Source: Lachnospiraceae bacterium (GTDB lineage: Bacteria; Bacillota; Clostridia; Lachnospirales; Lachnospiraceae). Taken from it: 64,000 bases of DNA. Location of the stretch: assembly GCA_036653135.1 (NCBI GenBank), contig JAVVUO010000009.1, forward strand, positions 890 through 64,889, read 5' to 3'. The notes beneath the pieces are model-generated. The model did no database searches. It was not told where the DNA came from and saw only the letters and a list, made by a program, of their open reading frames with translations. This document shows, one piece after another, positions 29,830 through 56,942 of this stretch. Made by a program: the position numbers and the translations under genes. How positions within the stretch are numbered: position 1 is the stretch's first letter; the number at the start of each line of letters is the position of its first letter.

Positions 29830-29861
29830 GCGGAATCCTCATTATAGAGTAAAAATGATGA

Positions 29862-29946
29862 AAAAAGAATCCTGCTTGCAGGATTCTCCAGCTGCGGAAG
29901 GTCAATTTATTGACCTATTACATCTTTGCCGCAGTGTGATCCTCAC
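29862..29946 (-). repeat. Dispersed 85-bp element, copy 1 (homologous to 56858-56942)
   Basis: Hand alignment 71/85 identical, no gaps; includes the palindrome AGAATCCTGC-AA-GCAGGATTCT plus a U-tract. Confidence 0.9.
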
Positions 29947-29988
29947 GGAGTGCTTTTTATTACAGAGGGGGCACTTTCCTATGTAATG

Positions 29989-30035
29989 AAAAAAGACTCT
30001 TTCCATTATCACGCATGATATAGGAAAGAGTCTTT
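29989..30035 (-). terminator. Intrinsic terminator downstream of yebC
   Basis: 13-bp AAAGACTCTTTCC/GGAAAGAGTCTTT stem with inner TATCA/TGATA, T-run on the minus strand. Confidence 0.75.
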
Positions 30036-30152
30036 ACAAGTGCAGTTCTAGAAGCGGTCTTCGTAAAAACTCACTCGCAAGCGGTGCATCCCTCTTCTAG
30101 AACAAGTGCGGTTCTAGAAGCGGTCTTCGTAAAAACTCACTCGCAAGCGGTG
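30036..30152. repeat. Direct repeat of 51 bp (30036-30086 and 30102-30152)
   Basis: ACAAGTGC(A/G)GTTCTAGAAGCGGTCTTCGTAAAAACTCACTCGCAAGCGGTG twice, one mismatch, 15-bp spacer. Confidence 0.95.
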
Positions 30153-30157
30153 AGTTT

Positions 30158-30886
30158 TTACTCATCCCAGTTTGTGAATACGGCTTGGACATCGTCGTCT
30201 TCGTCTAGGAGGTCTAATGTTTTTTGTAAGGATTTCACAGCGTTTTCTTCTGTTAACTCCACATAATTTTGGGGAATCATGGTGACTTCTGCTGAAATCA
30301 TGGTAATATTCTCTGCTTCTAATTTTTGGCGTACTTCATAAAAAAGATCAGGATCGGTTATAATTTCAAAGCTGTCTTCTTCTTCTGAGAAATCTTCTGC
30401 TCCTGCATCTAATGCAATCATCATTAAATCATCGGCATCTATTTCACATTCTTCTTTGTCTAGAATGATTTGACCTTTTTTATCAAACATATAGGATACA
30501 CACCCTGGTGTTCCAATGTTTCCATTTCCCTTGGTAAATGCACTTCTTACATTTGCAGCGGTACGGTTCTTATTGTCTGTTAATGCATCTACAATAATAG
30601 CAATGCCGTTTGGTCCATATCCTTCATAAGATACATACTCATAATTAACAGATGCGGCATCTCCTGCGGCTTTTTTAATTCCTCGGTCAATGGTATCATT
30701 TGGCATATTGTTTGCTTTTGCCTTGACAATGACATCACGCAGTCTGCTGTTATTGTCTGGGTCAGAGCCACCTTCTTTTACGGCTACTGCAAGTTCTCTT
30801 CCTATAATGGTAAAAACCTTGCCCTTTGCCGCATCATTCTTTTCTTTTCTATGCTTAATATTTGCAAATTTAGAATGTCCTGACAT
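30158..30886 (-). CDS. yebC: YebC/PmpR-family protein
   Basis: MSGHSKFANIKHRK, YEGYGPNG, TDNKNRT. Confidence 0.95.
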   Translation of the reverse strand: MSGHSKFANIKHRKEKNDAAKGKVFTIIGRELAVAVKEGGSDPDNNSRLRDVIVKAKANNMPNDTIDRGIKKAAGDAASVNYEYVSYEGYGPNGIAIIVDALTDNKNRTAANVRSAFTKGNGNIGTPGCVSYMFDKKGQIILDKEECEIDADDLMMIALDAGAEDFSEEEDSFEIITDPDLFYEVRQKLEAENITMISAEVTMIPQNYVELTEENAVKSLQKTLDLLDEDDDVQAVFTNWDE

Positions 30887-56461: not shown

Positions 56462-56728
56462 ATGAGTGATTTAGCTGCAACAAACTGTGGATGTGGATGT
56501 GAAACCAACAACGGCGGAGGATGTTCTTCCATTCTCTGGATTATTATCCTGCTTTCCTGCTGTGGTGGTAATGGTGGTGGCATCATGGGTGGAGATGGCT
56601 GTGGAAGTAATAGCTGTCTGTGGATTATTTTATTACTCTTCTGCTGCGGTGGTAGCGGCGGTGGATGTGGCAGCAGTGGCGGCTGTGGCGGCAGCGGCGG
56701 CTGTGGATGCGGTACTTCCTTCTGTTAA
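56462..56728 (+). CDS. Small Cys/Gly-rich protein with two LWII(I/L)LLxCCGG repeats
   Basis: GGAGG RBS, 88 aa, 15 Cys and 28 Gly, own terminator. Confidence 0.85.
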   Translation: MSDLAATNCGCGCETNNGGGCSSILWIIILLSCCGGNGGGIMGGDGCGSNSCLWIILLLFCCGGSGGGCGSSGGCGGSGGCGCGTSFC

Positions 56729-56738
56729 TTCTACAAAG

Positions 56739-56767
56739 AATCCCGGGAATCTATTCCCGGGATTTTT
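56739..56767 (+). terminator. Intrinsic terminator of the Cys/Gly gene
   Basis: 11-bp stem AATCCCGGGAA-tcta-TTCCCGGGATT followed by TTT. Confidence 0.9.
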
Positions 56768-56770
56768 CTT

Positions 56771-56910
56771 GTGTGCTAGGCATGGCACTAATCTAGCTGG
56801 AGTAAGTCCAGTCACGGATATTTACCGCCAAGTGTAGCAAAACGCAAGTTGATATCAGTAAGGATTGCACTGCGGCAAAGACGTAACATGTCAATAAATC
56901 GAACTGCCGC
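56771..56910 (+). mobile_element. 5' fragment (domain I) of a group IIC intron; no RT ORF or domain V seen
   Basis: Starts GTGTG 6 nt after the terminator stem; GTGC...GCAC pairing around GGCATGG; CTGG-AGTAAGT-CCAG; TAGC..AACGCAAG; CGGCAAA; CGAAC. Collinear with IIC intron 5' ends as I recall them. Confidence 0.65.
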
Positions 56911-56942
56911 AAAAAAAGAATCCTGCAAGCAGGATTCTTTTT
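56858..56942 (+). repeat. Dispersed 85-bp element, copy 2
   Basis: 71/85 identical to the reverse complement of 29862-29946. Confidence 0.9.
56916..56942. terminator. Bidirectional terminator-like palindrome AGAATCCTGC-AA-GCAGGATTCT
   Basis: A-run before and T-run after; abuts the stop of the minus-strand small ORF. Confidence 0.75.

Follow-up and report, generated by a model that had tools for sequence, protein, structure and literature searches.

Group IIC introns insert directly behind the T-tract of Rho-independent terminators, oriented like the terminated gene and with no target-site duplication, and to our knowledge terminator targeting has so far been known only for them. Small intergenic repeats of bacteria, such as BOX and RUP (pneumococcal), bcr1 (Bacillus cereus), Correia (Neisseria) and ERIC, are 100-200 nt long, occur in dozens of copies, form stable hairpins, exist in modular or truncated variants and are restricted to particular lineages. 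We know of none among these repeats that sits systematically flush with terminator T-tracts while bearing a terminator of its own. Here, we analyzed a 64,000-nt stretch from the draft genome of a Lachnospiraceae bacterium (contig JAVVUO010000009.1, hereafter the window). Two stretches within it are members of one interspersed, modular, hairpin-rich Lachnospiraceae repeat family, whose units lie directly behind the terminators of other genes. The genome comprises 2.77 Mb in 133 contigs and is ~90% complete, and draft assemblies were used throughout.

In the preliminary description, positions 29862-29946 on the minus strand (copy 1) had been matched to 56858-56942 on the plus strand (copy 2), and every detail of that observation could be reproduced. 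The alignment is gapless, with 71 of 85 positions identical. In copy 1, the hairpin GGTCAA-TAAA-TTGACC (29915-29900) is nested in a CTGCGG/CCGCAG stem (29934-29929 / 29897-29892), and copy 2 carries the TGCGGCA/TGCCGCA stem. The GTGTG 5' end is absent from copy 1 and present in copy 2 at position 56771. Both copies lie 3' of another gene's terminator and have the same sense as that gene, which is yebC for copy 1 (30158-30886, minus strand) and an ORF for a Cys/Gly-rich protein of 88 aa for copy 2 (56462-56728, plus strand). Within the window, the 22-nt palindrome AGAATCCTGCAAGCAGGATTCT is confined to two sites, 29866-29887 on the minus strand and 56917-56938 on the plus strand, with a T-run behind each occurrence, while none was expected from 100 dinucleotide shuffles. 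In both copies this region forms a G+C-containing stem-loop followed by five or six T residues (H4), which by its sequence would be classed as an intrinsic terminator.

The repeat in copy 1 was found to extend ~40 nt further in the 5' direction than the limits first drawn, up to position 29987, which adds a 5' hairpin (H1) bordered by a T-run (29989-29994) and an A-run (29954-29958). With this extension, copy 1 is a complete and typical long-form unit (29861-29987), which folds into three hairpins at -39.8 kcal/mol (z = -3.66). The parts of both copies and of the host terminators they abut are listed in Table 1. Just 3' of the yebC stop, the minus strand also carries a 66-nt tandem repeat (~30022-30157), of which each repeat consists of a terminator-like hairpin (CTCAC..GTGAG followed by T5) and a second hairpin (CTTCTAGAAC..GTTCTAGAAG). 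The window and GCA_036643315 have two such repeats each and GCA_036654895 has three, and related tandem units are located behind yebC in several further species of the genus (L076, L078, L079, L082).

Table 1. Repeat units, host terminators and the intron remnant in the window
Feature	Positions	Strand	Remark
yebC intrinsic terminator, AAAGACTCTTTCC...GGAAAGAGTC + T6	29989..30035	-	Host target hairpin abutted by the unit, outside the repeat; -18.5 kcal/mol
Copy 1, H1, ATTACATAGG-AAAGTGCCC-CCTCTGTAAT	29959..29987	-	True 5' end of the unit, based on family alignments
Copy 1, core GCACTCCGTGAGGATCACA, H2 (CTGCGG/CCGCAG) around H3 (GGTCAA-TAAA-TTGACC), CTGG	29888..29953	-	
Copy 1, H4, GAATCCTG-CAAG-CAGGATTC + T6, terminator-like	29861..29887	-	3' end of the unit
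Terminator of the Cys/Gly-rich ORF, AATCCCGGGAA...TTCCCGGGATT + TTTTTCTT	56739..56770	+	Host target hairpin
5' remnant of a group IIC-type intron, GTGTGCTAGGCATGG..., ~85-86 nt	56771..56855	+	Separate repeat
Copy 2, 3' two-thirds of a unit: core, H2, degenerate H3, H4 (56918-56937), T-run	56856..56942	+	

Copy 2 is a chimera of the 5' remnant of a group IIC intron and a unit of which the 3' two-thirds are left. The missing part comprises H1 and the start of the core and is replaced by the intron fragment given in Table 1; this fragment resembles the 5' end of a bona fide intron on contig C41. The fragment occurs at three places in the genome (copy 2, C45:12587-12672 and C23:35963-36031). It starts 0-3 nt after a terminator T-run at all three, and is fused to partial units at only two of them, copy 2 and C45. 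At C45 the intron stump meets the unit at ...ATGTAATAAAAAAC, and copy 2 looks like a composite of the C45 type minus 16 further nucleotides. In the scenario we propose, an intron had entered the same terminator T-run, and a unit that lost its 5' third became fused to the intron stump.

These findings bear on the "intron-like core" that had been ascribed to the repeat. Typical units begin with ATTACATAGG, and the GTGTGC fragment is found only at copy 2, C45 and C23. Copy 1 and at least 38 other units have neither a GUGYG end nor domains D5/D6 nor an Rfam intron match. An Rfam search gave no match in the window at the gathering threshold, and copy 1 had no intron match even at E≤10. Both loci at this relaxed cutoff, and the units of relatives, returned only spurious hairpin or miRNA matches, together with a weak RF02003 match at 56794-56891 (18.8 bits, E=0.05, threshold 49 bits), which lies mainly over the fused intron fragment. 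Since the fragment is separable and copy 1 is without an intron match, the intron-like character is that of the neighboring intron relic and not of the shared 85-mer. The intron-derived reading is thus wrong for the unit and right solely for the stump fused to copy 2.

Two copies in the window had led to the prediction of many copies genome-wide. A combination of BLAST and iterated nhmmer returned ~18 copies of the 85-nt part in the source genome, and iterated nhmmer with a full-length profile extended this to ~40 loci, so the family is not limited to the initial pair. Copies aligned together with their flanks define a full long-form unit of ~130 nt. Behind the host T-run, this unit consists of H1, a run of five or six A residues, CGCTCCGYGAGGATYGCA, H2 with an A/G-rich asymmetric loop and H3, GGCGGAG, and finally H4 with its T-run. 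The consensus reads TTTTTT, H1 (ATTACATAGGAA-AGTGC-TTCCTATGTAAT), AAAAAA and CGCTCCGTGAGGATTGCA in the 5' part, CTGCGG, C, AAAGATGTAATAT, GTCAA-TAAA-TTGAC, CCG and CCGCAG in the middle part, where H2 surrounds H3, and GCGGA, H4 (GAATCCTG-CAAG-CAGGATTC) and TTTTTT in the 3' part. H1 combines an invariant ATAGGAAA...YCCTAT core with a covarying outer stem. Short-form units are devoid of the ~38-nt middle with H2 and H3, many copies consist of the 5' module alone and a few of the palindrome alone, and many are truncated, internally deleted or arranged in tandem. No small conserved ORF was found in the unit, which contains ATG-stop pairs only. At C14:12282-12480, repeats of ~24 nt, made of the 3' arm of H1 and the A-run (GTGCTTCTTATGGAATAAAAAAAT), stand ~7 times in tandem.

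Conservation of the structure was evaluated in 41 long-form copies from the source genome and at least 12 others, with 500 shuffles and slid registers as controls. Overall, 88.9% of the cells in the predicted stems were paired, and H4 was the best-kept helix at 96.6% across the 41 copies. Double-sided changes were seen in 19 pairs, compared with 11.8±1.8 in the shuffles (reached in 0 of 500), which bears out the earlier impression of structure retained under divergence. Counted by cells, there were 98 such changes versus 30.5 in the shuffles and at most 21 in the slid registers. All five pairs of H3 have undergone double-sided changes across the family, giving GTCAA/TTGAC, GTTGC/GCAAC, ATCGC/GCGAT, GTCGC/GCGAC and ACCGC/GCGGC. 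The outer stem of H1 varies between species as ATTACATAGG/CCTATGTAAT, GTTTCATAGG/CCTATGAAAC, ATGATATAGG/CCTATATCAT, ATTTTATAGG/CCTATAAAAT and ATGTAATAGG/CCTATTACAT. H2 and H4 can be replaced wholesale, and the sequence of the 3' hairpin differs between genera while its terminator-like form is always kept. An RNA stage, or a need for transcription termination, is therefore conceivable, since the 3' end is preserved as a terminator and not as a sequence. Wobble pairs, compared between strands as a possible means of telling RNA from DNA, carried little weight in this respect: the sense-strand stems showed no excess of G·T (40 cells) over A·C (78 cells), in counts that are dominated by a few inherited changes.

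Nearly all units start right at, or 1-2 nt past, the T-run of a locus-specific hairpin and point in the sense of the gene ending there. The upstream hairpins differ at every copy and include the terminators of a tRNA-Leu gene (C13) and, in a relative, of the tmRNA gene. For the 40 nt before the T-run, the median folding energy was -13.1 kcal/mol at units and -2.8 kcal/mol in 2000 random intergenic 40-mers, and values of -8 kcal/mol or lower were obtained for 79% of the units versus 10% of the controls. Five low unit values in this comparison were registration errors of the script at places where the terminators are obvious. With crude ORF calling (at least 90 aa, greedy choice), 35 of 40 units had the same orientation as the upstream ORF and 27 of 38 that of the downstream ORF. 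Units were located on the G-rich strand in 28 of 35 cases versus 84% of ORFs, indicating no strand bias beyond that of genes, and four units on the lagging strand still follow their own upstream gene. Together, the co-orientation and the lagging-strand units indicate that the terminator predicts the orientation of a unit better than the direction of replication does.

Units were also found in head-to-tail tandem arrays, in which the next H1 directly follows the previous T-run, at C20:44452-44622 and many times in relatives. T-runs of variable length border the units at both ends, and no other direct repeat was seen there. A second hairpin repeat (GTTCAYGAAGGGG..CACC..GGGTG..TTCGTGRAC with a T-run) is itself a terminator-like hairpin abutted by units. 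It stands just upstream of units in Blautia UMGS97 and Marseille-P3201T (L091/L107) and in Anaerostipes faecalis (L089). Its recurrence across genera, with units behind it, suggests that different repeat families stack behind genes.

Of 25 genomes sampled from the genus, 16 carry the unit, and it was found in none of the 16 genomes that represent other families of the order. An exact-pattern scan with one genome per species identified carriers in Anaerostipes faecalis AGMB03513 (many copies), an uncultured Blautia, Blautia sp. Marseille-P3201T, Lachnotalea, Lientehia hominis and other Lachnospiraceae, as well as in one Vallitaleaceae MAG and one Acetivibrio MAG. Units are also present on a 243-kb Roseburia plasmid (NZ_CP135163.1, Roseburia sp. 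831b), on one plasmid record from goat faeces that bears the label C. perfringens, and on 18 contigs from the human gut listed as "Bacteriophage sp.", which measure up to 91 kb and include MT835858, MT839789 and MT835472. Full-length units on the plasmid and on the unannotated virome contigs share 73-81% identity with the consensus, and these replicons are possible vehicles for spread between genera.

The copies differ in age. Those in the source genome are 69-93% identical to the consensus, which indicates that they are old. In three or four conspecific assemblies, located via exact matches to YebC and to the Cys/Gly-rich protein, the two window copies are both fixed, copy 1 differing by a single SNP and copy 2 not at all. 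Insertion polymorphism at the window copies was not seen among these assemblies, and in the source species both copies would accordingly be old and fixed. In A. faecalis, a 181-nt variant is present as 13 full copies with 90-99% identity, which lie at different loci, alongside ~25 partial ones, and these near-identical dispersed copies point to recent proliferation. Blautia UMGS97 and Marseille-P3201T differ at an orthologous locus whose flanks are highly similar: the former carries two tandem units there and the latter a single one. The resulting indel of 125 nt corresponds to about one unit and could equally be due to unequal recombination between tandem units. No clean empty site was found for copy 1 in other species, where the region downstream of yebC is non-syntenic and the terminators differ. 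The same was true of a young A. faecalis copy among 19 Anaerostipes genomes, in which the upstream gene retains 82-94% identity next to a different terminator and a different downstream gene.

The source genome is itself rich in group II introns, with 13 RF00029 (D5/D6) matches and five matches to GIIM (PF08388, the intron maturase domain) above the curated cut-off. Near-identical D5-D6 intron 3' ends and GIIM fragments lie at the ends of contigs C76, C72, C111, C100, C91, C78, C106, C77 and C7, and this location at the ends of short contigs suggests that introns still active or recently so are among the main reasons why this assembly breaks. At C40:15672-15828 there is a mini group II intron of ~160 nt, whose GTGCG end is joined almost directly to D5-D6 and which sits a few nucleotides past the T-run of a short-form unit's terminator (region C40:15600-15830). 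Two different group II introns occupy the same position in the H1 loop (...ATAGGA / intron / AAGTG..CCTATG...), one at C41:13846-14917 in the source genome and the other, spotted by eye, at G003:C17:76648-76721. The C41 intron contains TCCTAT ~250 nt from its start, a possible EBS1 for ATAGGA, as well as a reverse-transcriptase ORF that is truncated, and a search of 48 further genomes of the genus gave no DNA relatives of this intron. General homing of introns to the H1 loop was considered and dismissed, as a scan for the junction pattern in 251 genomes (about one per Lachnospiraceae genus) gave C41 and a chance-level match only. A paper on circularly permuted group II introns proved unrelated to the unit.

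We consider it probable that the family is a non-autonomous selfish mobile element, which inserts at the 3' edge of the T-tracts of Rho-independent terminators and is oriented like the gene that ends there. Behind this reading stand the observed position and orientation of the units, their tandem arrays, the young near-identical copies, the one-unit indel, and the presence of units on a plasmid and on phage-like contigs. Each unit ends in a terminator with a T-tract and may thereby regenerate its own target, which would explain the head-to-tail arrays. As the hairpins are kept by compensatory change, a helper acting in trans probably recognizes the unit in the form of folded single-stranded nucleic acid. 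A group II intron reverse transcriptase is unlikely to be this helper, and an HUH/Y1 single-strand transposase or another hairpin-reading enzyme is a possible one. PF01797 (Y1 transposase) had no match in the source genome and three in A. faecalis. Across 13 genomes it was present in four of five with units and in four of eight without, which amounts to no clear correlation. An autonomous parent was sought in A. faecalis and the source genome as a pair of 5' and 3' modules 1-3 kb apart, and neither genome had such a pair or modules flanking an ORF. In A. faecalis (L134, C33:1-2100), an IS605-like tnpA-tnpB element lies ~480 nt 3' of the T-run of a unit's terminator. Its left end has no similarity to the unit, and its boundary is ill-defined, as the contigs break and its sister copies are on collapsed contigs.

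The preliminary description had viewed the repeat as a short non-autonomous element with a terminator of its own. The multiple copies, the terminator-like end and the location behind the terminators of genes agree with this part of the proposal. The derivation of the unit from an intron did not hold. A SINE-like retroelement derived from a group IIC intron, and mobilized in trans by an intron-encoded reverse transcriptase, would share with the units the target logic of insertion 3' of a T-run, in sense and with no recognizable target-site duplication. It would also suit a genome rich in group II introns, in which intron pieces adjoin units at copy 2, C45, C40 and C41, as they do at G003:C17. 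However, typical units have no GUGYG end, no D5/D6 and no intron match, the intron fragment is a separate repeat, and the unit copies in this intron-rich genome are old. The youngest copies occur in A. faecalis, which has no RF00029 match, and neither have the unit-rich genomes G004 and G008. This burst in the absence of any detectable group II intron disfavors both the intron-derived origin and the suggested spread in trans by a IIC reverse transcriptase. An RNA of 130 nt without a ribozyme cannot reverse-splice, which further weakens this model, and we assign it the lowest probability of the explanations weighed here. Spread without dedicated machinery, through template switching or illegitimate recombination on T-tract microhomology combined with unequal crossing-over in arrays, would fit the T-runs at both ends of every unit, the numerous internal-deletion variants, and the boundaries of the UMGS97/P3201 indel inside the repeated H1 sequence. 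Such events may occur singly, but the 13-copy burst in A. faecalis would be hard to achieve via rare 6-nt microhomology, and the invariant core and covarying stem of H1 point to recognition by a factor. We therefore regard purely passive spread as very unlikely.

A different type of explanation is that the units constitute a functional family of structured RNAs, such as an sRNA gene, a 3'-UTR element or an insulator, which is transcribed by read-through or from an unrecognized promoter, ends at its own terminator, and has spread only secondarily. The compensatory changes in H1, H3 and H4, the stable fold of copy 1 and the well-kept H4 with its T-run, which remains terminator-like between genera, are all in line with this. 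Some units, moreover, stop a few nucleotides before a ribosome-binding site, as before dapF (C16:31807-31903). Against it, neither the unit nor the sequence before it yielded a sigma-70-like promoter, and little transcription should reach units that start directly after a terminator. The numerous truncated, internally deleted and tandem copies, the lack of a G·T excess in the sense-strand stems, the lack of an Rfam family match, and the occurrence on phage-like contigs and a plasmid argue in the same direction. The units also share no common class of downstream gene, and 11 of 38 downstream ORFs are convergent. We thus judge a functional RNA family to be an unlikely explanation, and favor the selfish mobile element. 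More tentatively, this element may belong to an unrecognized class that homes to the 3' edge of terminators, a possibility to which we give less credence than to the mobile element as such. This class would follow a IIC-like target logic without a ribozyme, terminal inverted repeats or target-site duplication, driven by a hairpin-reading machine present in Lachnospiraceae and in their phages and plasmids. An invariant AGGAAA-type motif, displayed by H1 as well as by the asymmetric loop that separates H2 from H3, would be what the machine reads. As each unit brings a new terminator, insertions would reshape the 3' ends of transcripts and seed arrays, and they would create landing sites later used by group II introns, as at C41 and G003:C17.

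The repeats fill dozens of 3' intergenic regions per genome in Lachnospiraceae that are abundant in the human and animal gut. At present they would go unannotated or be misread as sRNAs, attenuators or intron relics, and recognizing the family prevents such mis-annotation. It also accounts for the supposed intron-like core, for assembly breaks and for tandem arrays, and yields a marker by which strains can be typed. With every insertion, a terminator and long hairpins come to lie between genes, which may alter read-through and the stability of mRNA 3' ends. A helper, if found, would represent a second way to target transcription terminators, protein-based or otherwise new.

In their landing site, the units match group IIC introns, of which pieces are found at the same type of site in the source genome (copy 2, C45, C23 and C40). 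They differ from these introns in being only ~130 nt long, in lacking GUGYG, the ribozyme domains, D5/D6 and a reverse-transcriptase ORF, and in having young copies in genomes without a detectable group II intron. Like the PATEs of IS200/IS605 elements and the REP/REPIN sequences associated with RAYT, they are small and free of ORFs, carry a hairpin at or near each end, and have no terminal inverted repeats and no recognizable target-site duplication. Further shared features are the insertion beside a short sequence resembling the 3' end of the element (in this case the T-tract), the extragenic location behind genes, and the compensatory structure. Unlike in these systems, H1 and H4 of the unit are unrelated, H4 being merely a variable terminator, and no inverted pairing of the REPIN type was observed. 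In addition, no Y1 transposase was found in the source genome, and there is no replication-strand bias beyond that of the genes. A MITE derived from a DDE element would have terminal inverted repeats, whereas H1 and H4 are each self-complementary and not complementary to one another. BOX, RUP, bcr1, Correia and ERIC resemble the units in the general features given above, but they possess terminal inverted repeats, short duplications (TA, TTTAT) or both, or else lack a defined target. Full-text literature searches turned up no account of an element like the unit. The family is therefore apparently undescribed, being similar to group IIC introns in its landing site and to PATEs, REP sequences and MITEs in kind, while differing from each of them in the features by which they are defined.
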